Part shown: piece by piece, positions 2,513-28,070 of the stretch
Layout of the letters: every line of letters starts with the position of its first letter
How positions within the stretch are numbered: the first letter of the stretch is position 1
NCBI RefSeq assembly: GCF_000015585.1
Contig: NC_008789.1
Coordinates: forward strand, 2,100,001 to 2,132,000
Direction of reading: 5' to 3'
From: Halorhodospira halophila SL1
GTDB taxonomy: Bacteria > Pseudomonadota > Gammaproteobacteria > Nitrococcales > Halorhodospiraceae
DNA length: 32,000 nt
Made by a program: the position numbers and the translations under genes
Notes under the pieces: model-generated
Seen by the model: the letters and a program-made list of their open reading frames with translations, nothing else
Told to the model about the DNA's origin: nothing
Databases searched by the model: none

Positions 2513-3964
2513 CTAGGTCGACGGCCGCGCAGGTACGCCCAGCGCCTTTAACCAGCCCGGCTCGAGGGCCTGCTCCAGGGTGTCGGCGAGCCGGTCCAGC
2601 TCCGCCTCGATGCGCGCCTGCTCGTCGCCGCCCTCGCCCTCCAGGGCGAACCACTCCACCAGCAGGGCACGGCGGAACGGTCCGCTGTCGAACAGCCGGT
2701 GGAGGTAGCTGCCGAGCACGCGACCGTCATCGGAGCGCGCCACGAAGGGGAAGAGCCCCTCTTGGGCGCCGGTTACGCCGTGGTGGATCTCGTAGCCGGT
2801 GACCGCCACGGGCGCCGGCCACTCGGCGTGGCCGTGCACCTCGGCGAGCTGCTTGGTCGGCGCCAGACGGGTGTGCACCGGCAGCAGACCCAGCCCCGGT
2901 GCGCTGCCGCCGCCCTCGACGCCTTCCGGGTCTTCGATGCCCTCGCCGAGCATCTGCAGCCCGCCGCAGAGGCCGACCACCCGACCCCCATAGCGGCAGT
3001 GGCGATAGAGCGCCTCGGCCATGCCCGACTCGCGCAGCCAGGCCAGATCCGAGAAGACGTGCTTGGACCCGGGCAGGACGATGAGATCGGCGCCGTCGAG
3101 CTCCCGGGGCTGGCGGGCGAAGCGAACGTGCACCCCGGACTCGGCGTCCAGGGCGTCGAGATCGTCGTGGTTGCTCATCCGCGGATAGGCCACCGCCACC
3201 ACTTGCAGGGCGCCGCCGGAGCCGCGCGGCCCGGCCATCCGGTACGGGGCATCCTCCTCGGGCAAGTGCAGATCGGGCACGGCGGGGACGACGCCGATCA
3301 CCGGCACCCCGCCCCGGGCCTCCAGCTGGGCTGGCGCCTCGCCGAGGAGTTCGGGGCTACCGCGGAAACGGTTGATGATCAGCGCCTCCACCCGGCGCCG
3401 GTCGGCGTCGTCGAGCCACTCCAGGGTGCCGAGCAGGGAGGCGAAGACCCCGCCGCGATCGATGTCGCCGACCAGCCAGACCGGCACATCGGCCGCCTCG
3501 GCAAAGCCCATGTTGGCGATATCCCCCTGGCGCAGGTTGGGCTCCGCCGGCGAACCCGCCCCCTCCACCAGCACCACGTCGTAGGCGGCGCACAGGCGCT
3601 GGAAGGACTCGAGCACCGGCGGCAGCAGCGGCTGGCGGGCCTCGCGGAAGGCGCGCGCCTCCAGCCGCCCGGTGACGTGGCCCTGGACCACCACCTGGGC
3701 GGTGCGCTCGGCCTCGGGCTTGAGTAGCACCGGGTTCATGTCGGTGTGCGCCGGCAGCCCAGCAGCCAGGGCCTGAAGCCACTGACCGCGCCCGATCTCG
3801 CCACCGTCGGCGGTGACCGCCGCATTGTTGCTCATGTTCTGCGGCTTGAACGGCGCCACGCGGACGCCGTGGCGGGCGAGCAGCCGGCACAGCCCCGCCA
3901 CCAGCGCCGTCTTGCCGGCGCCGGAGCAGGTGCCCTGGAGCATCAGGGTGCGGGCTCTCACCAC
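2513..3964 (-). CDS. cobQ: Cobyric acid synthase (CobQ/CbiP)
   Basis: 483 aa. N-terminal LMLQGTCSGAGKTALVAGLCRLL...APFKPQNMSNNA, and a C-terminal glutamine amidotransferase-like GLCGGLQMLG. Overlaps cobO by 7 nt. Confidence 0.92.
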   Translation of the reverse strand: MVRARTLMLQGTCSGAGKTALVAGLCRLLARHGVRVAPFKPQNMSNNAAVTADGGEIGRGQWLQALAAGLPAHTDMNPVLLKPEAERTAQVVVQGHVTGRLEARAFREARQPLLPPVLESFQRLCAAYDVVLVEGAGSPAEPNLRQGDIANMGFAEAADVPVWLVGDIDRGGVFASLLGTLEWLDDADRRRVEALIINRFRGSPELLGEAPAQLEARGGVPVIGVVPAVPDLHLPEEDAPYRMAGPRGSGGALQVVAVAYPRMSNHDDLDALDAESGVHVRFARQPRELDGADLIVLPGSKHVFSDLAWLRESGMAEALYRHCRYGGRVVGLCGGLQMLGEGIEDPEGVEGGGSAPGLGLLPVHTRLAPTKQLAEVHGHAEWPAPVAVTGYEIHHGVTGAQEGLFPFVARSDDGRVLGSYLHRLFDSGPFRRALLVEWFALEGEGGDEQARIEAELDRLADTLEQALEPGWLKALGVPARPST

Positions 3965-5916: not shown

Positions 5917-6768
5917 CTAACGCAGGATGAGCAGCGGCGTGCTCGAACGCATGATCATGTGCGTCGTGGTACTGCCGACAAAGAACCGGCGCAGCCGCGA
6001 GTGGCCGAAGGCCCCCATGGCCATCAGGTGAATGTCCTTCTCCTTGCGGTAGTTGCACACGGTCTCATCGATGCCGCCCGGGCGGACCTCGGCGTGCACG
6101 GTATACCCGGCTTCCTCCAGCTGCTGGCGCGGCCCCAGCAGGCGCTCACGGTTGACCGCCGTATCGGCATCCACCAGCAACAGGTGCGCCTCGAGGCCCT
6201 GAAGCAGCGGGCTCTCGGTGATGCGGTCCACCACCTTCTGGGCTGCCGGGCTCCCGTCGTAGGCGATCAGGAAGCGTTCCGGCTCCCGGAAATCCAGGGG
6301 GGCAACGAGGATCGGCTTCTGCACCCGGCGGATGGTGCTCTCCAGATGGCTGCCGATGTGCTGCGCCAGGGCGTCGCCGTCCTCGCCCTGCTTGCCAAGG
6401 ACCAGCAGCCGCATCTCGTCCTGGGCGTCGGCCAGCACGTCGGTAACCTCGCCGTTGCGCAGCAGCCGGCCGGGATTCTCGATGCCCTGCTCGCGGGCCC
6501 GGGCCATGGCGTCCTCCAGGATGGCACGCGCCTGTTCGCGGGCGAGTTTGCCGCGCTGCTCCTCGAGCGTAACCATCTCGTCGAGGAGATTCTCGCGCAC
6601 CCCAAAGGTCAGATTGCCGCTGAGATCCCGATCGCGCTCGCCGTGCGGGTTGCGGAATGCGTGCAGAAAGGTCAGGGGCGCATCCAGCCGTTTCGCTGCC
6701 CAGACCGCATGATCACAGACGGCCGGCGACGAGCGGGACCCGTCGACACTGGCAATGACTTTGCTCAT
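5917..6768 (-). CDS. Universal stress protein, tandem Usp domains
   Basis: MSKVIASVDGS...LTFLHAF in the first domain and FLIAYDGS...MGAFGHSRLRRFFVGSTTTHMIMRSSTPLLILR in the second. The ATG at 6768 has a GGAG 9 nt upstream. The alternative ATG at 6783 adds 5 aa. Confidence 0.8.
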   Translation of the reverse strand: MSKVIASVDGSRSSPAVCDHAVWAAKRLDAPLTFLHAFRNPHGERDRDLSGNLTFGVRENLLDEMVTLEEQRGKLAREQARAILEDAMARAREQGIENPGRLLRNGEVTDVLADAQDEMRLLVLGKQGEDGDALAQHIGSHLESTIRRVQKPILVAPLDFREPERFLIAYDGSPAAQKVVDRITESPLLQGLEAHLLLVDADTAVNRERLLGPRQQLEEAGYTVHAEVRPGGIDETVCNYRKEKDIHLMAMGAFGHSRLRRFFVGSTTTHMIMRSSTPLLILR

Positions 6769-6790
6769 TCGTTCGGACTCCATTGCGTGC

Positions 6791-8284
6791 TCAGTGGCCC
6801 ATCAGCCGCTCGACGGCGTCCGGCTCGTTATGGACCGCGTAGCGATCAACGATGGTGGCCGTCGCCTCATTCATGCCGACGATCTCCACCTCAACGCCTT
6901 CGCGGCGGAAGTTTATGACGACCCGGTCAAGCGCTGCCACCGACGTAATGTCCCAGAAGTGCGCCCGGGTCAGGTCGATGGTGACCGTATCCAGGTCCTC
7001 GCCGAAGTCGAAGGACTCCCGGAAGCGCTCGGCGGAGGCGAAGAAGACTTGGCCGACCACCTCGTAGCGCCGGTGCAGAGTCTGGTCATCGGGCAGCGAC
7101 TGCACGTCGGAGCGGACGTACATAAAGCGACTGACCTTGTTGGCGAAGAACAGCGAGGCGAGGAGCACGCCGGTGAGCACGCCGATGGCCAGATTGTGGG
7201 TGAACACGGTCACGCCCACCATGCTGACCATGACGATGTTGGTACTCAGCGGGTGGTCCTTCATATCGCGAAGCGACCGCCAACTAAAGGTACCGATGGC
7301 CACCATGATCATCACGGCAACCAGGGCGGCCATGGGGATCATCTCCAGCAGCGGGGTGAGGAAGACCACCAGGACCAGCAGGACGACACCGGCCACCAGC
7401 GAGGACAGCCGCCCCCGGCCACCGGATTTCACATTGATGATGGACTGACCGATCATCGCGCAGCCGGCCATGCCGCCCACACTACCGGCGGCGATGTTGG
7501 CAATGCCCTGCCCCTTGCACTCGCGGTCGCGGTCCGTCTCCGTATCGGTCAGGTTGTCGACGATCCCCTGGGTCATCATCGACTCGAGCAGCCCCACCAC
7601 GGTCAGCGCCAAGGCATAAGGCAGGACGATCCACAACGTCTCTAGGTTCAACGGGACGTCGGGCCAGAGGAAGACCGGCAGGGTATCCGGCAACTTGCCC
7701 ATATCACCGACGGTGGGGACGTCCATACCGAGGAACCAGGCGATCGTGGTCAGCACCACGATGGTGACCAGCGGCGACGGCACCAGCCGCGTCAGGTAGG
7801 GGAGCAGATAGATCAGCGCCAGGCCACCGGCGACCATGGGGTACACCGCCCAGGGGACATCGATCAGCTCGGGTAGCTGCGCCATGAAGATGAGGATCGC
7901 CAGGGCGTTCACGAACCCGGTCATCACCGAGTTGGAGATAAAGCGCATCAACTGCCCGACCCGCAGGTAGCCGGCGATGATCTGCAGCACGCCGGTCAGC
8001 AGCGTAGCGAACAGCAGGTACTCCAGCCCGTGGTCCTTGACCAGGGTGATCATCAGCAGCGCCATCGCCGCCGTCGCCCCGGAGATCATGCCGGGCCGGC
8101 CGCCGGTGAAGGCGATCACCACGGCGATGCAGAACGAGGCGTAGAGCCCCACCTGCGGGTCGACGCCCGCCATGATCGAAAAGGCAATCGCCTCAGGGAT
8201 CAACGCCAGCGCAACGATGATGCCCGCCAGCACGTCGGCCCGCACGTTGCCGAACCACTCCCGTTGAATCCGATCCCAGTTCAT
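6791..8284 (-). CDS. SulP-family anion (sulfate/bicarbonate-type) permease with C-terminal STAS domain
   Basis: [41 protein letters not shown], multiple TM segments, and a STAS-like [23 protein letters not shown]. Start at the ATG at 8284 (AGGGGA SD). The longer start in the track adds 20 aa. Confidence 0.85.
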
Positions 8285-8536
8285 CACTTCCCCTGATTGC
8301 GTGAAGCCAATGGCCCGATGGTGGCGAGCTGCCCATGAGGACATGACTGCCGTGCGGCGCCGAAGAGACGGCGCGCTCAGGACAGCAATGTGCTCGTAAA
8401 GGGAGACCCAGGCCGAGAAGAGACCGGGGCGAAGCCTACGCAGTGAAGCATCGGCCGCCGGCCGCGAAGGGTGCGGATCCTAGCAGACCATTGAAGGAAA
8501 TGATAGTGAGAGCCCTCAGGATCAGGTGCCCGCGGA

Positions 8537-8566
8537 TTGACGCCGGGCAACCATCAACCCGATACT
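8537..8566 (+). promoter_or_regulatory. Putative sigma70-type promoter for the ParA-like gene (TTGACG-N18-GATACT)
   Basis: Hexamers read directly at 8537-8542 and 8561-8566, about 55 nt upstream of the GTG start. Confidence 0.3.
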
Positions 8567-8620
8567 TGCGAGCGCTCCCGCGATCTCTAACCGGTTGGCC
8601 AAGCGGGGCAGGAGGCAAGC

Positions 8621-9412
8621 GTGAATCGCGTGATCTTCAACCAGAAAGGCGGGGTGGGCAAATCCACCATCACCTGCAATCTGGCCGCCATCAGTGCTGC
8701 CAGCGGGTTACGGACCCTGGTGGTCGACTCCGATCCGCAGGGCAACTCCTCGCAGTACCTGCTCGGCGGTGCCGCAGAGACCTGCGAACACACCATCGCC
8801 GACTTCTACGCCTCGACGCTGGGCTTCCGGCTCGGGCCACGCAAGCCCGCCGACCTGGATCAGTTCATCACCGAGACCCCGTTCGAGAACCTCTCCATCC
8901 TGCCGGCCAACCGGGAGCTGGAGGCACTGCAGAATAAGCTGGAGGCGCGCTACAAGATCTACAAGCTGCGCGACGCCCTCTCCAGCCTGCAGACCCCCTT
9001 CGATGCCATCTACATCGACACCCCGCCGGCGCTGAACTTCTTCAGCCGCTCGGCACTGATCGCCGCACAGCGCTGCCTGATCCCCTTCGATTGCGACGAC
9101 TTCTCCCGTCGAGCGCTCTACGAGCTGGTCGAGCACCTGGAGGAGATCCGCGAGGATCACAACGAGGCGTTGCGGGTCGAGGGGATCGTGGTGAATCAGT
9201 TCCAGCCCAGCGCCAACCTCCCCCGGCAGCTGGTCGAGGAGCTGATCAATGAGGAACTGCCCATCCTCGCCCCGCACCTGAACAGCTCCGTCAAGGTCCG
9301 CGAGTCGCACCAGAACGCCCAGCCGCTGATCCACTGGGCGCCAAAGCACAAGCTGACCGGGCAGTTCCGCGAGCTCTACGAGAACCTCAACGGCGCGACC
9401 GTCACCTCCTAG
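8621..9412 (+). CDS. ParA/Soj-family deviant Walker-A ATPase, with no parB-like partner in the window
   Basis: 263 aa. GTG start with an [25 protein letters not shown] (KGGxxGKS with the signature lysine), then VVDSDPQGN and IYIDTPPAL. Confidence 0.85.
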
Positions 9413-18360: not shown

Positions 18361-19247
18361 CAGCGATTGCGCCGGGCCTGCTGGAGCTTGTCACACAGCA
18401 CCCGCGTCCCCTCCAGGATGCGTGGCGTCGGGCGCTGGATCGTGGACGGCTCGACAAAAAAGAGGTTGTCCTTGGCGGTGGCCTCGAGGATGTCATAGCG
18501 CCGCCACTCCTCCAGCCACGAGTCATCCGCCTCGCCCATGCCGCCGGCGACGATCGCCTCCGGGTCGGCCGCAAGGATGGACTCGGTGTCCAGCCGCGGG
18601 GTCAGGCTGTCGAGATCACCGAAGACGTTCTCGCCGCCGCAGATGCGGATCGACTCGCTGATGATCTGCTCGTCGTTGACGGTCATCACCGGGTCCGGCC
18701 AGATCTGGTAGAAGACCCGCACCGGATCGCGGTCGGCGTACTCGGCCTCCAGCTCGTCCCGCGCATCGCGGAAGCGGGCGGCCTCGGCGTCGGCCTCGTC
18801 TTCAGTGCCGGCCAGGGTACCCAGACGCTCCAGGGAGGTGGCGATCTCGTCGAGGACCTTCGGATCGCTGCGGTAGAGCGGCAGGCCCAGCGCCTCGATC
18901 CGCTCCAGCTGGCTGCTGGAGTTGCCGCTGGTCCAGCCCACCACCAGATCCGGATCCTTCGCGAGGATCGACTCCATATCGAGCCGGTCGTAGGTGCCGA
19001 CCCGGGGCAGTTCCTCCGCCGCCTCCGGATAATCCGCGTGACTGACCGCGGCCACCACATGGTCCCCGGCGCCGGCGGCGAAGAGCAGTTCCGTCGCCCC
19101 GGGCGAGAGGGCCACAATCCGCTCCGCCGGGGCCTCCAGGCAGACCTCGCGGCCGGCGTCGTCCTCCACGCAGCGTTCACCAGCATGCACCGGCGACCAC
19201 GCCGCCAGCAGCACCAGAAATCCGGCTGCGATGCCCCCTAGCGCGGT
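18360..19247 (-). CDS. btuF: Periplasmic cobalamin-binding protein BtuF (start codon unresolved)
   Basis: RIVALSPGATELLFAAG...DYPEAA...DPDLVVGW...RVFYQIW...ICGGENVF...RPTPRILEG aligns by eye along E. coli BtuF. A signal-peptide-like ARTALGGIAAGFLVLLAAWSPVHA precedes it. The first roughly 290 aa of the 582-aa ORF in the track are a shadow over Uma2 and pduO. Confidence 0.8.
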   Translation of the reverse strand, partial: TALGGIAAGFLVLLAAWSPVHAGERCVEDDAGREVCLEAPAERIVALSPGATELLFAAGAGDHVVAAVSHADYPEAAEELPRVGTYDRLDMESILAKDPDLVVGWTSGNSSSQLERIEALGLPLYRSDPKVLDEIATSLERLGTLAGTEDEADAEAARFRDARDELEAEYADRDPVRVFYQIWPDPVMTVNDEQIISESIRICGGENVFGDLDSLTPRLDTESILAADPEAIVAGGMGEADDSWLEEWRRYDILEATAKDNLFFVEPSTIQRPTPRILEGTRVLCDKLQQARRNR

Positions 19248-19840
19248 TCGGGCCCCGGCGGGGCGTCCTCGAAGACCTCGGCCCCGATGAGCCGGGCCTC
19301 CAGGCTGGCCAGCACCACTTCTTCGTGGGCCTCGTGCGGGTACAACACCCAGTGGCCCTGACCGTCCGCCCGGTAGAGCTCCAGGCTCCCGATCTCCGGG
19401 TCGATGAGGAGATACTCCCGGAGCGAAGGGAGTTTGCGGTAGGCGGCAAACTTGGCACCCCGGTCGTACGCCGCCGTGGAGGGGGACAGCACCTCCACCA
19501 CGAGGCACGGCGCCTCCTTGTGCTGGGACCGCTGATGATCGGCCGGATCGCAGGTCACCAGCACATCCGGGTAGAAGAAGGCGTCGGCAGCCGCCACCCG
19601 CACCTTCATGTCGGCCATGTACGTACGGCAGCCACCCCCGCGCAGCTGCTGGCGCAGCGCGCTGGCCACGTTCAGCGTCACGGTCACGTGGCGGTCCGAG
19701 GCCCCGCCCATGGCGAAGATCTCCCCCGCCACGAACTCGTGCTTGAGGGGTTGCTCCGCCTCCCAGGCGAGGTACGCCTCGGCGGTCATCCCGGCGGGCT
19801 GCGGATCGGCCATGGCTGGAACCTCGGGATACACAGTCAT
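19238..19840 (-). CDS. Uma2-family (DUF820) restriction-endonuclease-fold protein
   Basis: 200 aa. AEAYLAWEAEQPLKHEFVAGEIFAMGGAS..HVTV..N, FFYPDVLVTC and PCLVVEVLSPST...DRGAKFAAYRKLPSLREYLLID match the Uma2 pattern (D...EVxS...K core). The alternative ATG at 19813 has a GAGG SD. Confidence 0.8.
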   Translation of the reverse strand: MTVYPEVPAMADPQPAGMTAEAYLAWEAEQPLKHEFVAGEIFAMGGASDRHVTVTLNVASALRQQLRGGGCRTYMADMKVRVAAADAFFYPDVLVTCDPADHQRSQHKEAPCLVVEVLSPSTAAYDRGAKFAAYRKLPSLREYLLIDPEIGSLELYRADGQGHWVLYPHEAHEEVVLASLEARLIGAEVFEDAPPGPEPR

Positions 19841-20644: not shown

Positions 20645-22528
20645 CTACTGCTGATTGAAGTGCAGCGAGACGTACACCGCCCGCCCCGGCTGGTTGTAGC
20701 CGCCCACCGTCTCGTACTCCTTGTCCAGGGCGTTCTCCAGCGTCCCGCGCAGGGTCCACTCCGGGGTGATGGCGTAGCTGGTGCGGAGATTGAGGAGGCC
20801 GTAGCCGGAGAGGCGCACGCGTTCCGACTGACTGGTAGCCATATCAAAATCGGTGTCATAGCTTCGCCCCCGCAGCAGGCCAGTGGCCCCCAAGGAAAAA
20901 TCCCCCAGCTCGCGATCGATTTCCAATCGGAACGACTCACTCGGGCGCCGAAGCAACTCCTCACCCGTCTCCCGGTCCTCGTGATCGAGGTAGGTGAACG
21001 CGCCAGAAAACTGCCATTCCTGCCAGTGCGCCCCCGCCTCCAGCTCGGCACCGCGGATGCGGGCCTCTTCGACATTGCCAGGCTGCGTCCAATCCTGCTG
21101 ACCATCCACTGGCTTATCAGCGATCAAATTGTCGATGTCCGTCCGGAACAGCGCTGCATCCACATAGCCCCTTCTGACCTGCCAGCGTGCACCCACCTCC
21201 GCAGAAGCGGACGTCTCGGCCTCAAGGTCCGTATTTCCTCCGGCAAGCAACCAATTCGGGTTTTCAGGTGCATACAGGTCGTTGAATGTCGGCGCCTTGA
21301 AAGCCGTGCCGTAGCTCGAACGCAGCCGAAGTCGATCCGTTGCGTCAAAGCCCCAGGCGACCTGACCGGTCACGTTGTCACCGTAAGCCTCGTTGTCGTC
21401 GTAACGCAGGCTGGCACCGAGGTCATGTCGGCCTAAATCCAACTCGAGCTGCGAATACGCACCGGCGTTGTACCGGCTGGTTTCGTCATAATCGTCGGCG
21501 GTGTCGACTTTCTCATCTCGCCAGTCACCGCCAAAGGCCCAGACATGCCCGGCGCCCCAATACAGCTCATTCCGCCAACTTACCTCGTGGCGTTCAGTGT
21601 ACTGCCATGTCTCTCCCCGGCTATCGACGTTATCCTGCTCATCCTTCGCCTGGGAGACCGCCAGCTCGCTGAACCAGCGCTCGGTGAGGTCCCCGCGGAC
21701 GCCGCCACGGAGGGCCTGGAAGTAGTGATCCGTCCAGTCCTCTTCGCCAAGTCTTGTCCCGTCGAACTCGTTTGTACCCTCTGAGCGGAACCCCGTCGCG
21801 AAGAGTTCGGCACCGCCGGGTAGCCGATGGCTGAAACGGCCGCTGAAGCTGGTGTTCTCAAAGCCGTCGGGGTCCTCATCTCCCTCACCGTCCTGGACGT
21901 TGATCCCGTCCGTCTCGTAGTGGCTGGCCGAGAGGGCGTAGCGGCTAGCCGCAGTCCCGCCAGAGACACCCAAACCGAATTCGTGGGTGTTGAACGACCC
22001 GGCGCCGCCGAAGGCACGGAAGCGCGGAGGGCCCTCCTCCCCCTGGCGGGTGAAGACCTGGACCACACCGCCGACGGCGTCGGCGCCGTAGACGCTGGTG
22101 CGCGGCCCGCGCACCACCTCGATGCGGTCAATCTCGGCAGGAGGCAGATATTGCCAGGCGGCCCCTCCTTGCGTCGCCGAATTCATCGGCACCCCATCGA
22201 CCAGCAACAGGGTATGGTCAGAGTTGGTACCGCGCATGAACAGACTGGTGCTCTTGCCGAACGGACCCGACGTCGTCAGGCTCGACCCCGCCTGACCCTG
22301 CAGCAGATCCGAGACCTGCCGAGGCTGCTGGCGGTCGATCTGCTCGCGGTCGATGACGGAGACGGAGGACAGGGACTCATCGACGGTCTGGGCCATTCGA
22401 GTTGGCGTGACCACGAGGGGCGCGAGTTGTGCGGACTCCCCGTCGGTATCGGCGATCGCCGGGCCGGCACTTACGGCAAGACCGGCCGCCACACCCGCGG
22501 CGACCCGGCTGGTGGTGTTGCTGGGCAT
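20645..22528 (-). CDS. btuB: TonB-dependent vitamin B12 outer-membrane receptor BtuB
   Basis: From the ATG at 22528: signal peptide, then LAPLVVTPTRMAQTV (TonB-box region), VSVIDREQIDRQQPRQVSDLLQGQAG, SLFMRGTNSDHTLLLVDGVPMN and RIEVVRGPRTSVYGADAVGGVVQVFTR, which parallel E. coli BtuB. The C terminus ends in HFNQQ. The 88 N-terminal residues in the track lie in the riboswitch leader. Confidence 0.9.
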   Translation of the reverse strand: MPSNTTSRVAAGVAAGLAVSAGPAIADTDGESAQLAPLVVTPTRMAQTVDESLSSVSVIDREQIDRQQPRQVSDLLQGQAGSSLTTSGPFGKSTSLFMRGTNSDHTLLLVDGVPMNSATQGGAAWQYLPPAEIDRIEVVRGPRTSVYGADAVGGVVQVFTRQGEEGPPRFRAFGGAGSFNTHEFGLGVSGGTAASRYALSASHYETDGINVQDGEGDEDPDGFENTSFSGRFSHRLPGGAELFATGFRSEGTNEFDGTRLGEEDWTDHYFQALRGGVRGDLTERWFSELAVSQAKDEQDNVDSRGETWQYTERHEVSWRNELYWGAGHVWAFGGDWRDEKVDTADDYDETSRYNAGAYSQLELDLGRHDLGASLRYDDNEAYGDNVTGQVAWGFDATDRLRLRSSYGTAFKAPTFNDLYAPENPNWLLAGGNTDLEAETSASAEVGARWQVRRGYVDAALFRTDIDNLIADKPVDGQQDWTQPGNVEEARIRGAELEAGAHWQEWQFSGAFTYLDHEDRETGEELLRRPSESFRLEIDRELGDFSLGATGLLRGRSYDTDFDMATSQSERVRLSGYGLLNLRTSYAITPEWTLRGTLENALDKEYETVGGYNQPGRAVYVSLHFNQQ

Positions 22529-22674
22529 GCTTTCCTCCCTTCCGCGCGCCACCCGCACGCGCGTCGGTCCGGTTACACCGCAGGGAGGAAGACAGGGATG
22601 GGGGAAGGGTTCGCGCTTGCGCCCGGCAAACGGTGGCCTGCCCCGGTCTGCCGCCTCCCGCGGCACCTGGGTTC

Positions 22675-22887
22675 CCTCAGGCCGGTCTCCGGGCTCGTGG
22701 GTGGGGTCGGGTGACCCCGGGCGGATCGCCTTCCCGCAGGGCCCGCCGCCGAACGACGACGCCTTGCAGTGGCCTTCTGATCCGCCCCCCACCTACCGTT
22801 GCGGGGGCAGCGCCGGACTCGCCGCTGGGTGCGGCTGTACCGGTCTTCCCGTTTCACCCCGCCGCTGCTCGCGCGGGGCACCTGAGG
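22675..22887 (-). promoter_or_regulatory. Cobalamin (AdoCbl) riboswitch b, leader of btuB
   Basis: Minus-strand read: CCTCAGG...ggggtgaaacgggaagaccggtacagccgcacccagcggcgagtccggcgctgcccccgcaacggtaggtgggg...GCCACTG (plus-strand cagtggc at 22767-22773)...gggaaggcg...agcccggagaccggCCTGAGG. P1 is closed by CCTCAGG/CCTGAGG. Confidence 0.88.
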
Positions 22888-22895
22888 AAGTTGGT

Positions 22896-22924
22896 ACTCT
22901 AGGCAGCTCGCTCACCGGCGTCAA
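22896..22924 (-). promoter_or_regulatory. Putative sigma70-type promoter for riboswitch b/btuB (TTGACG-N17-TAGAGT)
   Basis: Minus-strand TTGACG (22924-22919) and TAGAGT (22901-22896) with a 17-nt spacer. The predicted TSS is about 2 nt before the P1 strand. Confidence 0.45.
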
Positions 22925-23009
22925 ACCGCCACCGACCCGGACCACTGGAGCCGCTGCCGAGACGCCATGACCTGTTACCCGCCACTACGGGCCCCTGTGC
23001 GCCGCCGCC

Positions 23010-23771
23010 ATGACGCCTGAGCCGCTGCGCGTGCTGCTCCTCGGCGGCACCGGCGAGGCGCTGACGCTCGGCCAAGCGCTGGAGCAGGAGCCCGGGATCG
23101 CCGCGGTCTACTCCGTGGCCGGGGTGACCCGCCACCCACGGCTACCTCAACTGCCGGTGCGTCGCGGCGGCTTCGGCGGCGCTGTCGGCCTGGCCGCGTA
23201 CCTGCAGCAGCACGGCGTGCACTGCCTGGTCGATGCCACCCACCCCTTCGCTGCCGGCATCTCCGCCAACGCAGCGGCGGCCGCCCGGCAAACGGGGACA
23301 GCCTTGCTGGCGGTGCGCCGGCCGGCGTGGCAGCCGGGGCCGGATGAGCAGTGGCATCGGGTGGCCGACATGGCCGCCGCCGCCGAGGCGCTGGGGCCAC
23401 AGTCGAGCCGGGTACTGCTGACCATCGGCAATCAGGAGGTCCCGGCCTTCTGCGCGGCACCCCACCACCGCTACTGGATCCGCTGCCTGGAGCAGCCGGC
23501 GCAGACCCCGCCCGGGGCGGAACTGCTCTTCCAGCGCGGGCCGTTCCGTTACGCCGACGAGTGCCGCCTGCTCCGCGCGCACGGCATCGACACCCTGGTC
23601 ACCAAGAACGCCGGCGGGGCCGCCACCCGCAGCAAGCTGGATGCGGCTCGGGACTGCGGGGCCCGGATCGTGATGGTCGAGCGCCCGCCGGACCCGCCCG
23701 AGGCGGAGGTGGCCACCGACGTCGGGCACGCACTGGCGTGGCTCCGCAGCTACCTTCAAGGGCGCTGGTGA
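23010..23771 (+). CDS. cobK: Precorrin-6A / cobalt-precorrin-6A reductase (CobK/CbiJ)
   Basis: 253 aa. VLLLGGTGEA, LVDATHPFAAGIS, TKNAGGAAT and KLDAARDCGARIVMVERP are typical of CobK. Confidence 0.85.
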   Translation: MTPEPLRVLLLGGTGEALTLGQALEQEPGIAAVYSVAGVTRHPRLPQLPVRRGGFGGAVGLAAYLQQHGVHCLVDATHPFAAGISANAAAAARQTGTALLAVRRPAWQPGPDEQWHRVADMAAAAEALGPQSSRVLLTIGNQEVPAFCAAPHHRYWIRCLEQPAQTPPGAELLFQRGPFRYADECRLLRAHGIDTLVTKNAGGAATRSKLDAARDCGARIVMVERPPDPPEAEVATDVGHALAWLRSYLQGRW

Positions 23772-23794
23772 CGCTTTGCTGCATCATGGATTCA

Positions 23795-23823
23795 TTGAAT
23801 CTAATTTGCTCGCCTGCTAACGT
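23795..23823 (+). promoter_or_regulatory. Putative sigma70-type promoter for riboswitch c (TTGAAT-N17-TAACGT) in a locally AT-richer patch
   Basis: Hexamers at 23795-23800 and 23818-23823. The riboswitch P1 begins about 10 nt downstream. Confidence 0.4.
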
Positions 23824-23832
23824 CCGACCCGC

Positions 23833-24060
23833 CAATGGGTGCCCGCCGAGGCCACTCCGCCTCGCGGGTTAAACGGGAAGACCGGTTCAGCCGCACCCAG
23901 CGGCGAGTCCGGCGCTGCCCCCGCAACGGTAGGTGGGTGGCGGCAGACCCCGAGAGCCACTGCGGATCGCACGTCCCCTGGGCGGCATCCGCGGGAAGGC
24001 AGTCTGCCGCCCGGAGGTCTTCTCACCTCCGCCCCACAAGCCCGGAGACCGGCCCATGGC
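23833..24060 (+). promoter_or_regulatory. Cobalamin (AdoCbl) riboswitch c, leader of the receptor-cbiD unit
   Basis: aatgggtgcc...gggttaaacgggaagaccggttcagccgcacccagcggcgagtccggcgctgcccccgcaacggtaggtgggt...GCCACTG (23956-23962)...gggaaggcag...agcccggagaccggcccatgg. Confidence 0.88.
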
Positions 24061-24216
24061 CAACCGGAAGACCGCGGGAGGCGGTGCGCCGGGATCGGTC
24101 TCCAGTGCGCGCGGCATCCTGCCGGGCGTCGCCTCGGCTAGCCGAACCCCGCCCCACTGACTCCCCGCGGTACACGCAACCGCAATCGCGCACGGGCGGT
24201 GCGCAGAGGAGTCAGC

Positions 24217-26247
24217 ATGGCTACAGGACAGCCCATCGCCAGGGCGCTGCTGAGCGGCGCCGCGGCCCTCCCCCTGATGGCAACACCGAAGGCTGGATCG
24301 GCCGAGGAACACCCCACCGTCCTCCCCGACCTGACCGTCACCGCAGCCACGCGCACGGAGCGCCAGGTGGAGCGGACACCGGCGGCCACGGAGATCCTAT
24401 CCGGAGACGACATCCGGCGCAGCGGTGCTGCCATGCTCGATGAGGCGCTTCAGGCAGAGTCGAGCATCTACACCGGGGTAGACGGCAACACCTTCTCCAT
24501 CCGCGGCGGCAACCGCGATGACATGCTCTATCTCATCGATGGCCGCCGCATCGCCGGCACCTCATCCCGTAGCAACGAACTCAACCGGATCCCGGTGAGC
24601 CATGTCGAGCGTATCGAGATCGTTAAGGGGCCCGGCAGCGTGGTCTACGGGGCGGACGCTGTGGCCGGTGTCATCAACGTGATCACGCGGCGGCCGGAGC
24701 CCGGCCTGGAAGGCGGCGTCTCCGCCCAGGCCGGAACGCCAACCGACGCGGAGGGCGGTGAGCAGTACCAAGGGGGCCTCTACCTGGGCGGTGGCACGCA
24801 AGATACGCGCTTTCGGCTCTTCGCCGACGCCCTCGAGCGCGAGGCGTACTCGGAGGAGACAACCACTCAACCCGACGAGGGTGGCGCTCCATCTTCCCAG
24901 ACCTTCGATCGGGATCTCCGCCCATCCGCCGATGTGTACACCCTCCGCGGCGGAGTGACCCACTGGTTCACCGATCGCTTCCATATCGATCTCGAAGCCG
25001 GTTTCCTGACCGAGGAGCGGCAAGAGCGCCTCGTCCAAGGCAGCGGCCCGGGCAATATTGAAGACTTTGCAGCTGTGGAGACCGAGGAGAGCGACCGGCG
25101 CGACCTGGCGGCGACGGCGGAGTGGCTGGCCACCGAAAACCTGGAGCTGCGCTACCAGGCCTACGAGAGCCATTATAAGTTTGACCGTGTCCGGTCGCAC
25201 CTTGCTCCGCAGGACTTCGCCTCGGACGCAGCAGATCGAGACTTCGGCTTCCGCGAGGCGACCTTCACCGAGCGCGTCAACGACTTCCTGGCACAATGGC
25301 AGCCGGCGCCCCGCCACACCGTGCTGACGGGCCTCGAGCACAAGCAGCAGATCTACCAGGACCTCCAGCCAGAAGACGAACCCGAGCACGACCAGTGGGT
25401 AGGCGGCGGCTTCCTGCAGCACGAGTGGCAAGCCACGGACCGCCTGGATCTGGTCTACGGCGCTCGGCATGACGAGACCTCCACGGAGGCGGACAGCACC
25501 TCGCTTCAGGCCGGAGCTGTTTACCGCCTGGCCCCCGAGGTCCGACTGCGCGCCCAGTACGCTGAAGGCTTCAAGCTGCCCGAGCTGCGCTCCTTTTACG
25601 TCGATACGGAAGATGGCCAGGGGCGCGAAGTTCGCGGCGCCTACGTCATTGACCCGGATGTTGGTAAGGACGAGACACACGAACTCGATCCCGAGAGCAG
25701 CCGCAACTACGAGTTCGGCATCGCCGGCGACCTGAATCTGCAAAGAGATATCACGGCGTTCTACGACATCGGACTCTTCTACACCGAGTACGATGATCGC
25801 ATCGGGCGGGCACCGGGGAACGGTTACCAAACCTTCAAAAACGTCGACAGCGCCCGCGCCCAGGGGGCCGAGCTCAAGCTCGGCGCCGCCTTCGACCCGC
25901 AACTCGAGCTGACGCTGGCCGCCACCTACCTCGACGCCATCGACCGCGACAGCCGGGAGACCCTCACCGATACGCCTGAATGGACAGCGGTAGCCAAGGC
26001 GCTGTGGACGCCCACGGACCCGCTGGAGGTGCAATTACGCACCCGATACGTGGATGAAGTGCGCGTTGGCGACGACTGGGACAGCGCCTACACCCTCACC
26101 GGCCTGGATGTCGCGTATGCCCCTGCGGCCTGGGATGGGCTCAGGCTCCAGGGCGGTATCGAGAACCTGCTGGATGAGGGCAACGACTCCTCCCTTCGAG
26201 CCGACCCCGGGCGCTTCGCCCGTGCAGGTGTGCGGTATGATTTCTAG
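24217..26247 (+). CDS. TonB-dependent outer-membrane receptor (cobalamin-riboswitch controlled; substrate unknown)
   Basis: MATGQPIARALLSGAAALPLMA signal peptide, LPDLTVTAATRTE, TFSIRGGNRDDMLYLIDGRRI and IEIVKGPGSVVYGADAVAGVINVITR, with a C-terminal ...ARAGVRYDF. The ATG at 24217 has an AGGAG SD. The GTG at 24199 in the track adds 6 aa. Confidence 0.88.
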   Translation: MATGQPIARALLSGAAALPLMATPKAGSAEEHPTVLPDLTVTAATRTERQVERTPAATEILSGDDIRRSGAAMLDEALQAESSIYTGVDGNTFSIRGGNRDDMLYLIDGRRIAGTSSRSNELNRIPVSHVERIEIVKGPGSVVYGADAVAGVINVITRRPEPGLEGGVSAQAGTPTDAEGGEQYQGGLYLGGGTQDTRFRLFADALEREAYSEETTTQPDEGGAPSSQTFDRDLRPSADVYTLRGGVTHWFTDRFHIDLEAGFLTEERQERLVQGSGPGNIEDFAAVETEESDRRDLAATAEWLATENLELRYQAYESHYKFDRVRSHLAPQDFASDAADRDFGFREATFTERVNDFLAQWQPAPRHTVLTGLEHKQQIYQDLQPEDEPEHDQWVGGGFLQHEWQATDRLDLVYGARHDETSTEADSTSLQAGAVYRLAPEVRLRAQYAEGFKLPELRSFYVDTEDGQGREVRGAYVIDPDVGKDETHELDPESSRNYEFGIAGDLNLQRDITAFYDIGLFYTEYDDRIGRAPGNGYQTFKNVDSARAQGAELKLGAAFDPQLELTLAATYLDAIDRDSRETLTDTPEWTAVAKALWTPTDPLEVQLRTRYVDEVRVGDDWDSAYTLTGLDVAYAPAAWDGLRLQGGIENLLDEGNDSSLRADPGRFARAGVRYDF

Positions 26248-26249
26248 GC

Positions 26250-27371
26250 ATGAGCGAGGATACCTCCCAGCCGACTGATCAACAGGCCGGCACCGCCCTG
26301 CGCCGGGGCTGGACCACCGGCGCCTGCGCCGCCGCCGCGGCGCGGGCGGCCTTCACGGGCCTGGTCAGCGGCAGCTTCCCCGACCCGGTCACCATCCGCC
26401 TGCCGCGGGACCGGAGCCCGGCCTTCGCCCTGGCCGTTCACGCTTGCGGCGACGGCTGGGCGCGGGCCGGCGTCATCAAGGACGCCGGCGACGATCCCGA
26501 CGTCACCCACGGCGCGCTGGTCTCGGTGACCGCCCGCCCCGGGGCCCCGGGGCGCGGGGTGCAGCTCCGCGCCGGCCCCGGGGTCGGTACCGTGCGGCGC
26601 AGCGGCCTGCCCGTCGCGGCCGGTGAGCCGGCGATCAACCCCGGGCCGCGGGGCTATATCGAGCAGGGCATCGCTGAGGCCGCCGCGGCGCTGTCAGCCC
26701 CGACGGACGTCACACTGGAGCTCGCCATCGAGGACGGCGAGCGCCTGGCAGCGCAGACCCTCAACCCGCGCCTGGGGATCGAGGGCGGGCTCTCGGTGCT
26801 CGGCACCACCGGGTTGTTGGTGCCGTTCTCCTGCGCCGCCTGGATCGACGCGATCCAGCGCGGCATCGACGTGGCCCGCGCCGCCGGCATCGAGCACGTA
26901 GCCGGGAGCACCGGGCGCACCTCGGAGCAGGCCGTGCAGGCTTACCACCAACTCCCCGACGAGGCGTTGATCGACATGGGCGATTTCGTCGGCGGGATGC
27001 TCAAGTACCTGCGCCGCTATCCGGTGCCGCGGGTCACCATCGCCGGCGGTGTGGCCAAGATCACCAAGCTCGCCCAGGGCTTCCTGGATGTACACTCGCG
27101 CCGCGGGCAGGCCGATCTGGCGGCGTTGGCCGAGACCGCCGGACGACTCGGCGCGGACGCCACCTGCCGGGAGGTTATGGCCACCGCCAACACGGTGGCC
27201 GAGGCGTTCGATCGGGCGCAGGCGGCCGGCCTGCCCCTGGGGGACGCGGTGGCGCGGGAGGCGCAGCAGACCGCCCTGAACCTGATCGACCCGGCGTGCA
27301 GCGAGGTGGAGGTCCTCCTCTTCGACCGCCGCGGCCAGCGGGTTGGCCGCGCCGGCTGGGCCCGGGACTGA
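26250..27371 (+). CDS. cbiD: Cobalt-precorrin-5B (C1)-methyltransferase CbiD
   Basis: 373 aa. LRRGWTTGACAAAAARAA, DAGDDPDVTHG, GEPAINPGPR and GLSVLGTTGLLVPFSCAAW are CbiD hallmarks. The ATG lies 2 nt after the receptor stop. Confidence 0.88.
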   Translation: MSEDTSQPTDQQAGTALRRGWTTGACAAAAARAAFTGLVSGSFPDPVTIRLPRDRSPAFALAVHACGDGWARAGVIKDAGDDPDVTHGALVSVTARPGAPGRGVQLRAGPGVGTVRRSGLPVAAGEPAINPGPRGYIEQGIAEAAAALSAPTDVTLELAIEDGERLAAQTLNPRLGIEGGLSVLGTTGLLVPFSCAAWIDAIQRGIDVARAAGIEHVAGSTGRTSEQAVQAYHQLPDEALIDMGDFVGGMLKYLRRYPVPRVTIAGGVAKITKLAQGFLDVHSRRGQADLAALAETAGRLGADATCREVMATANTVAEAFDRAQAAGLPLGDAVAREAQQTALNLIDPACSEVEVLLFDRRGQRVGRAGWARD

Positions 27372-27374
27372 GGC

Positions 27375-28070
27375 CTACCAGCGGCGGACCGCCTCCTCGG
27401 CCTCGGCGTTGGCCGGTCGGGCAACGAGACCACTGCGGGTCACCGCCACCCGGTACTCGGCGCCGTCGGCCATGGGCAGATAGGCGGCACTGCCGTAGGC
27501 CGCATCCACCCACGGCAGGCGATCGCCGTGGCGCTGCCCCAGCAGCCACGGATCGATACCCCGTTGGGGAGACGCCAGGGCGTGCACCGTGCGCGGGGCC
27601 GCGCGCTCCGCCTCCAGATCGGCGTAACGACCGCTGATCCGCTCCAGCCGATAGCGGGTCTCCAGCCCCAGCAGGGCCGCGAACCCGCTCCAACGCAGAA
27701 CCCGGGCATCCACCTGCCATTGATCCCCGGCCAGGGGCAGAGCGACCGTCCCCCCGTCGGGATAGGCCAACCGGGCGACGTAGCGCTGCTCATCCACCTG
27801 CTGGAAGTGGAGGGCGAGCGCCGGACGCTCCTGCTCCAGCCGCTCGTAGGCCAGCACACCCAGTGCCAGGGCGCCGGCGGTCCCCAACCCGCCGAGCAGG
27901 ATCAGCCCACCGGCCAGCCCCGAGGCACCACGGAGCAGACGACCGCGCAGCAGCGCCGCCCCGCCGGCAACGGTCAGCCCGAGGGCGAGGGCCAGCAGCA
28001 GTGCCCCCAGGGCGAGCCCCGCCCAGCCGAACCCACTGATCGGAGCCGCCGCTTCCAGCCACCCGTACAT
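27375..28070 (-). CDS. Hypothetical membrane protein (2-3 N-terminal TM segments plus a roughly 150-aa soluble domain), family not recognised
   Basis: 231-aa ORF. The ATG has a GGGGGAGA SD. Gly/Ala/Leu-rich TM segments are followed by non-repetitive sequence (YVARLAYPDGGTVALPLAGDQWQVDARVLRW...). No competing credible ORF. Confidence 0.6.
   Translation of the reverse strand: MYGWLEAAAPISGFGWAGLALGALLLALALGLTVAGGAALLRGRLLRGASGLAGGLILLGGLGTAGALALGVLAYERLEQERPALALHFQQVDEQRYVARLAYPDGGTVALPLAGDQWQVDARVLRWSGFAALLGLETRYRLERISGRYADLEAERAAPRTVHALASPQRGIDPWLLGQRHGDRLPWVDAAYGSAAYLPMADGAEYRVAVTRSGLVARPANAEAEEAVRRW

Follow-up and report, generated by a model that had tools for sequence, protein, structure and literature searches.

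Why should two riboswitches that lead different operons, on opposite strands, be almost identical in the middle of the aptamer and so dissimilar on either side of it? The question is raised by a 32,000-nt stretch of the Halorhodospira halophila SL1 genome (contig NC_008789.1, positions 2,100,001 to 2,132,000; the whole stretch is called the window here, and coordinates are counted from its first letter), in which cobK, encoding precorrin-6A reductase, stands between two cobalamin riboswitches, b and c, that form an inverted pair. Together with a third copy in the window, a, these are known cobalamin riboswitches with full-length matches to the Rfam family RF00174 (gathering score 31.5 bits). 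The B12 box and core (GCCACUG ... AGCCCGGAGACCGGCC) are unchanged throughout an alignment of 14 sequences of a, b and c, and the genomic setting fits the family, as b and c precede genes of cobalamin transport and biosynthesis. The answer favored by sequence comparison, with a probability of roughly 85%, is that b and c are old paralogues and that part of c has been overwritten by b, repeatedly, through non-reciprocal interlocus gene conversion.

The likeness is confined to two inverted arms of 78 nt, found by repeat search to be 96% complementary and 1006 nt apart, which span J3/4, P4, the insertion hairpin of loop L4, P5/L5 and the 5' strand of P6 (Table 1). Compared directly, the arms show three mismatches, at 22787, 22838 and 22855 in b, and agree at the other 75 of their 78 positions; the longest exact match between b and c is 50 nt. 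An earlier sequence-only reading of the window had reported 66 identical positions out of 68 between 22787-22854 and 23871-23938 and had noted that a normally variable hairpin was the same in both copies; the direct comparison reproduced the first figure, and the hairpin indeed reads cagccgcacccagcggcgag in b as in c. Relative to the RF00174 consensus, it is placed by the Rfam alignment as a 16-nt insertion in L4. Its five pairs are 98.7% paired over 15 distinct a, b and c sequences, including one compensatory change from C-G to U-A, and on this comparative evidence it is a real helix. Riboswitch a has the same architecture with another hairpin (CAGCTGCCTCGCTGCAGTGAAG), and its core is 81-83% identical to those of b and c.

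Homologous loci, designated by L numbers, were gathered via homologues of CobK and of TonB-dependent receptor 2 (TBDR2), the product of the gene behind c, and via a DNA pattern scan; nucleotide identities of cobK and cbiD place them in the order ((L003, L013, L020, L022), window), L002, L004. The order seen in the window, with the gene for TonB-dependent receptor 1 (TBDR1) on the minus strand followed by b, cobK, c, TBDR2 and cbiD, is common to five independent assemblies, namely the window, a Halorhodospira metagenome-assembled genome (MAG; L002), a metagenome contig (L013), another H. halophila (L020) and Halorhodospira sp. 9622 (L022). A further Halorhodospira isolate assembly (L003, GCA_022227925) is without c and TBDR2, and its cobK adjoins cbiD. 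In an uncultured outgroup with a CobK that is 71% identical (L004, L005, L008, L011), b and c stand back to back and the genes run TBDR2-cbiD-cobK. Orthologues of riboswitch b were available from L002, L003, L004, L010, L013, L020 and L022, and stand-alone units of c and TBDR2 (L023-L026) served only as references for the c-type core. Ectothiorhodospira cobK loci (L016-L019) were considered as an outgroup for b and c and rejected, cobK lying there amid cbi methylase genes with no receptors.

When b and c of the same genome are compared segment by segment (5' flank with P1/P2, core, P6 extension, 3' end), riboswitch c of the window is found to be a mosaic, with a c-type 5' flank, a b-type core, a c-type P6 extension and a c-type 3' P1 strand. 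Identities between b and c along these four segments are 37, 97, 52 and 68% in the window, 35, 100, 56 and 74% in L002, 39, 97, 94 and 68% in L013, and 42, 81, 52 and 74% in the outgroup L004. Between orthologues, the flanks of b in the window and b in L002 are 91-97% identical, and those of c and c 82-97%. In all five assemblies with the b/cobK/c layout, c has a b-type core whose sequence follows that of b in the same genome. In L013, L020 and L022, c is b-type throughout its P6 extension as well (85 of 90 positions identical to b of the same genome), whereas a c-type P6 extension is common to c of the window, L002, L004, L026 and L023; c of the window and c of L013 are accordingly only 53% identical in this segment, where one of them was overwritten. 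In every case c remains c-type at its 5' flank and at its 3' P1 strand, and the chimeric c of L013 still matches the full RF00174 model, at 63.2 bits.

The loop of the L4 hairpin follows the genome and not the paralogue. It reads ACCCA in both b and c of the window and CTGCT in both b and c of L002, so that all five positions differ between these two genomes. In L013 and L020 it is ACCCA in b and AGCCA in c, in L022 ACCTA in b and ACCCA in c, and in L003, which has no c, ACCTA in b. In the outgroup L004, b has TGCTGA and c has another stem and loop altogether, GCCGCC-CGAC-GGCGGT. Covariation of the hairpin within genomes, proposed by the sequence-only reading as the mark of concerted evolution, is therefore present: the hairpin is the same within a genome and different between genomes. 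The lineage-wide hairpin consensus named there as the opposite outcome was not found, as the cobalamin riboswitches of this lineage differ in the hairpin.

The direction of transfer can be read from a single diagnostic position and from the longer tract. Unconverted c-type aptamers (L004, L026, L023) and all a-type copies have GGGAAG-T-CC, and all b copies and converted c copies have GGGAAG-A-CC; since the long tract is, in addition, plainly b sequence, the transfer ran from b to c. Tract sites were scored against the unconverted c in L004, L026 and L023 and against b in L004, and the ends of the tracts differ between lineages. The tract is about 67 nt long in the window and in L002 and about 170 nt long in the sister clade (L013, L020, L022). 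Functional constraint was taken as the null, represented by the b and c cores of L004, which agree at 57 of 70 positions (81%), the same level as a against b or c. Relative to this baseline, the agreement of the window cores (67/69) has a binomial P of 1e-4 and that of the long tract in L013 a binomial P of 9e-19. A maximum chi-square breakpoint test with 2000 permutations gave p = 0.0005-0.0015 in all five genomes (0.0015 in the window). At least three separate conversion events are suggested, because the long tract is restricted to one clade, (L003, L013, L020, L022), and because L002 has another loop sequence than the window and another 5' boundary of the tract (G versus T at column 59).

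Table 1. Coordinates of the riboswitches, repeat arms, candidate tract, promoter-like sites and genes in the window
Feature	Position	Strand	Details
Riboswitch a	2162-2406	minus	Rfam RF00174, 73.7 bits
Riboswitch b	22663-22900	minus	Rfam RF00174, 72.8 bits, model 1-189; leader of the TBDR1 (btuB-like) operon
Riboswitch c	23820-24071	plus	Rfam RF00174, 63.5 bits, model 1-189; leader of TBDR2 and cbiD
Inverted-repeat arm in b	22782-22859	minus	J3/4, P4, L4 insertion hairpin, P5/L5, 5' strand of P6
Inverted-repeat arm in c	23866-23943	plus	Mate of 22782-22859
L4 insertion hairpin of c	23890-23904	plus	Stem GCCGC/GCGGC, loop ACCCA; mirror copy in b at 22821-22835, minus
Candidate conversion tract in c	min 23881-23908, max 23871-23937	plus	Minimum set by diagnostic b-type sites; bounded by c-type sites 23870 and 23938
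Promoter-like site for b/TBDR1	22896-22924	minus	TTGACG-17-TAGAGT
Putative promoter for c	23795-23823	plus	TTGAAT-17-TAACGT, TG before the -10 (extended -10), read from sequence
TonB-dependent receptor 1 (TBDR1, btuB-like)	20645-22528	minus	Pfam Plug and TonB_dep_Rec_b-barrel; under riboswitch b
cobK (precorrin-6A reductase)	23010-23771	plus	Pfam CbiJ PF02571, E = 6e-70; between the divergent b and c promoters
TonB-dependent receptor 2 (TBDR2)	24217-26247	plus	Pfam; under riboswitch c, followed by cbiD
cbiD	26250-27371	plus	Pfam

Several observations weigh against repeated conversion or against the number of events proposed. The window tract is broken by a T at 23887, which is unlike b of its own genome and like b of L003 and L022, and which would need either a later mutation or a T-bearing donor b. 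The event count leans on few informative sites in short tracts (10-12 in the best block). Only six independent lineages are represented, and the cobK spacer, which may or may not be what allowed conversion, arose once among them. Moreover, the cores of L004 are closer together, about 190 nt apart, yet unconverted, and proximity alone does not therefore explain conversion; the outgroup pair may perhaps have stayed unconverted because a spacer as short as about 190 nt makes long inverted repeats unstable.

Near-identical arms could in principle reflect nothing but purifying selection or a lineage-wide consensus, with no sequence passing between b and c. Constraint on these aptamers is strong in that 51 of 76 core columns are invariant in all a, b and c copies, and it does account for a second short inverted repeat (22680-22701 versus 24033-24054), which exists because the B12 box is invariant in every copy examined. 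However, the level of identity that constraint maintains is the 81% seen between b and c of L004 and between a and b or c, not 97-100%. The loop that differs at all five positions between the window and L002 nevertheless matches within each genome, and the poorly conserved P6 extension of c reaches 94% identity to b in L013, L020 and L022, compared with about 50% for the other c orthologues. Constraint as the sole cause is thus considered highly improbable. An assembly fault, by which a repeat was collapsed or the core copied during assembly, has even less to recommend it and can be regarded as practically negligible: short-read contigs do break at the repeat, but the same structure is present in a 2.68-Mb contig, in two other isolate assemblies, in one MAG and in one metagenome contig, each with its own lineage-specific substitutions.

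The sequence-only reading had left the choice between recent duplication and gene conversion, and it is the second half of this statement that stands. If c, or c together with its receptor gene, were a young inverted copy of b just starting to diverge, near-identical inverted arms of 78 nt only 1 kb apart would be expected, as would the presence of a TonB-dependent receptor gene downstream of both riboswitches, and both are seen. Identity nevertheless ends abruptly within the aptamer, falling to 37% in the 5' flank and 52% in the P6 extension (35-52% over the riboswitch flanks), and BLASTP aligns the receptors only in part, at about 30% identity. The unit of c, TBDR2 and cbiD is already present in L004, where b and c are separate and c has a distinct c-type core, and c-TBDR2 units stand alone in L023-L026. 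A recent duplication is therefore very unlikely, and the covariation of the hairpin within genomes speaks for conversion.

A different role for the repeat would be that of an invertible cassette, flipping cobK and the two promoters between two expression states. The arms, with their exact stretch of 50 nt, do flank cobK and both promoters, and the sequence-only reading had supposed that homologous recombination between them would invert cobK and swap the promoter contexts. Against this, one and the same orientation is found in all five assemblies with the layout (window, L002, L013, L020, L022), and b and c retain their own 5' halves in each; the clade with a repeat of about 170 nt is no exception. 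Crossing over within the core would turn round cobK along with both promoters and the 5' half of each aptamer, and would leave P1 mispaired in b and c alike: the predicted P1 duplex energies are -16.5 kcal/mol for native b and -13.8 kcal/mol for native c, and fall to -3.6 and -7.0 kcal/mol in the inversion hybrids. As such a crossover joins the 5' P1 strand of b to the 3' strand of c and the reverse, both switches should fail, and the predicted outcome is a disabling of the leaders rather than a mere swap of contexts. No recombinase or invertase family was detected among the 13 open reading frames (ORFs) scanned with Pfam between 16.5 and 31.9 kb, which are part of the ORFs of that span and of which two matched no family. 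Inversion is possible on paper, unsupported, and predicted to be harmful, and a cassette function is accordingly hard to credit.

Public short-read data are of little help in this respect. Logan contigs end exactly 30 nt (k-1) inside the repeat (L001, equivalent to window 22808-23917, and L021:1-203), which confirms the repeat, and because of it short-read Halorhodospira assemblies break at this place and leave cobK on a 1.1-kb contig of its own. These contigs were rejected as evidence on inversion, as the exact repeat of 50 nt exceeds k = 31 and both isoforms give the same k-mers; the breaking of such de Bruijn contigs at the repeat, which means that they could not show a minority isoform, is a point that the cassette retains in its favor.

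Repeated conversion of c by b can be placed in the following scenario. Riboswitches b and c would each have had their own promoter and would each have controlled their own operon for a TonB-dependent corrinoid receptor. In the H. halophila lineage, cobK would then have arrived between the divergent promoters, leaving the aptamers inverted and about 1 kb apart, and afterwards the b patch would have been copied into c repeatedly by homologous recombination without crossover. This recombination may have been seeded in a block of 29 consecutive invariant bases, CCGGCGCTGCCCCCGCAACGGTAGGTGGG, which is shared by unconverted b and c cores and which would be held identical in the riboswitches of the lineage by functional constraint. 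The block falls within the range of 23-90 bp reported for the minimal efficient processing segment for recombination in E. coli (PMC3758752), consistent with seeding at this site. From CCGGCGCTGCCCCCGCAACGGTAGGTGGG, the tract would extend either into the variable L4 hairpin or through the whole P6 extension, every tract stopping within the P1/P2 frame; because the tracts end inside this frame, c would keep matched P1 strands, its promoter, its expression platform and a full riboswitch score. RecA-type recombination, perhaps modulated by mismatch repair, is the probable agency, as judged from the tuf system (PMC5485169) and from the reported homology requirements (PMC3758752), with presumed selection against the crossover (inversion) outcome. 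The inverted repeat would then have arisen incidentally, as two functional RNAs evolved in concert, and would not serve to invert cobK.

Both leaders appear to be transcribed independently. The promoter-like site of b is the sole sigma-70-type match in 22400-24300, with 0.0 expected from shuffled sequence; both of its hexamers are unchanged in six aligned loci, and the intergenic region of L004, which was aligned separately, has corresponding GTCAAA and TATAG elements. The site proposed for c falls below the threshold of the promoter scanner, and its TTGA and TGCTAA elements are conserved in six loci including L004, which points to a promoter. Transcription would start at about 22889 for b and at about 23830 for c. 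A scan of the 22400-24300 region found no intrinsic terminators. Helices between an anti-Shine-Dalgarno (anti-SD) and a Shine-Dalgarno (SD) segment are predicted in both expression platforms (CUGACUCC with GGAGUCAG in c, UCUUCCUCCCU with GGGAGGAAAG in b), and translational control by b and c may be proposed from them, while the overall folding energies of the two platforms are no better than those of shuffled sequence.

It had also been noted that cobK is without a riboswitch of its own and without an obvious SD, and this is borne out, as no purine-rich SD precedes the ATG either here or in five relatives. Comparison of intergenic regions places cobK of the window lineage in what is otherwise a gap of about 35 nt between divergent -35 boxes. 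In the outgroup (L004:1918-6768 against window 22528-27371), cobK comes after cbiD, which it overlaps by 11 nt, and is the last gene of the c-controlled operon; relocation presumably removed cobK from B12 control. A search ahead of the relocated cobK for the 3' remnant of cbiD that duplication and deletion might have left gave no alignment beyond noise. The locus appears to have been rearranged once more in L003 (9533-10800, compared with window 22528-26250), where riboswitch c and TBDR2 are gone and cbiD starts 10 nt past cobK. CobK has a changed C-terminus there, and a junction sequence of about 90 nt cannot be aligned to L022, with no informative alignment across the junction, which looks like a deletion or replacement in a rearrangement-prone locus.

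Three isolated features of related riboswitches were seen during the comparison. Riboswitch b of L020 has, at about 3460-3470 (alignment column 238), CCCACAAGCCC with a c-type A where every other b has G; this may be a single-site trace of transfer from c to b or an independent mutation. An a-type riboswitch (L014:428-502, minus) has the loop ACCCA, as do b and c of the window lineage, in a hairpin that is otherwise a-type with one broken pair (GCTGC-ACCCA-ACAGT), and this could be chance or a very short conversion of a by b. A second, partial cobalamin riboswitch match lies beside the a orthologue in three loci (L009:1460-1631, L012:3397-3566 and L015:1448-1617, minus), covering model positions 45-169 at 33-41 bits, about 170 nt upstream of the a orthologue and facing away from it. 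A sensitive E-value Rfam search returned no such divergent partner beside riboswitch a of the window.

Downstream of TBDR1 on the minus strand are genes for a cobalamin adenosyltransferase, a Uma2-family protein, a periplasmic binding protein, a FecCD permease and an ABC ATPase. The Uma2-family gene (19238-19840, minus; annotated as a putative restriction endonuclease) thus lies within the B12 transport operon, where it separates the adenosyltransferase gene from that for the periplasmic binding protein, and this position is kept in L003, L020 and L022. Directly past cbiD, on the opposite strand, is an ORF of 231 aa (27375-28070, minus) with no Pfam match, whose position is kept in the same three loci and which is absent from the outgroup L004. 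The G+C content of the window is about 70%; it drops to 0.62 at 21001-22000, within the TBDR1 gene, with neighboring values of about 0.70-0.74, and a comparable dip to 0.64-0.66 is found at 6001-9000.

Whether homogenization serves a purpose is a separate matter. Homogenization could be modular and adaptive, with the 29-nt ligand-binding core acting as the recombination seed through which aptamer modules (the L4 hairpin, the P6 extension) pass from leader to leader, and with selection retaining the b-type module in c because it makes the two corrinoid receptors answer the same ligand at the same threshold; this is a doubtful proposal, put forward tentatively. Were it to hold in general, gene conversion would be one of the ways in which ligand selectivity or tuning of riboswitches spreads among the operons of one genome. 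The locus also offers a natural example of a structured regulatory RNA as a mosaic, in which one module is overwritten while the RNA keeps its own closing helix, promoter and platform. For riboswitch phylogenies and duplication histories it calls for caution, as similarity of cores within a genome can mean conversion and not recent duplication. No new regulatory mechanism is revealed, and the underlying process is already known; a mosaic riboswitch with recurrent tracts of differing length is a new example of it. No relevant precedent for gene conversion or concerted evolution of riboswitches was found in the literature that was searched.

Among known systems, the nearest in function are the btuB-type leaders of RF00174. 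Riboswitches b and c resemble them in matching the full-length model, in the invariant B12 box, in lying upstream of TonB-dependent receptor, B12 transport and cbi genes, and in the predicted anti-SD:SD helix of both platforms. They differ in the lineage-specific 16-nt hairpin in L4, in that two of the three copies in the window share a core via conversion, and in that no intrinsic terminator was found. The invertible promoter switches fimS and hin also have inverted repeats bracketing a promoter-bearing segment. Unlike these switches, the present locus has no recombinase family among the scanned neighboring ORFs and a single orientation in five assemblies, and its repeats are the functional RNA itself, which inversion is predicted to break.

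The tuf genes of Salmonella provide the closest parallel for the process. These protein-coding genes of about 1.2 kb are almost the same from end to end and lie far apart on the chromosome; the two copies face opposite ways and seldom give rise to inversions. Non-reciprocal transfer with tracts of variable length has been described between the co-evolving tufA and tufB of Salmonella (Paulsson, El Karoui, Lindell & Hughes 2017, PMC5485169), and b and c are similar in being two homologous sequences that would co-evolve in this manner. In contrast to tufA and tufB, they are RNA leaders, each about 240 nt long, that are separated by 1 kb and only 37-52% identical away from the 29-nt invariant block, and their tracts measure 67-170 nt and run from b to c in every case seen. 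The concerted evolution of rRNA operons and other bacterial repeat families likewise makes copies within a genome more alike than orthologues. Here, however, an internal module alone is homogenized while the flanks stay orthologous, and the product is a mosaic RNA rather than a uniform family.

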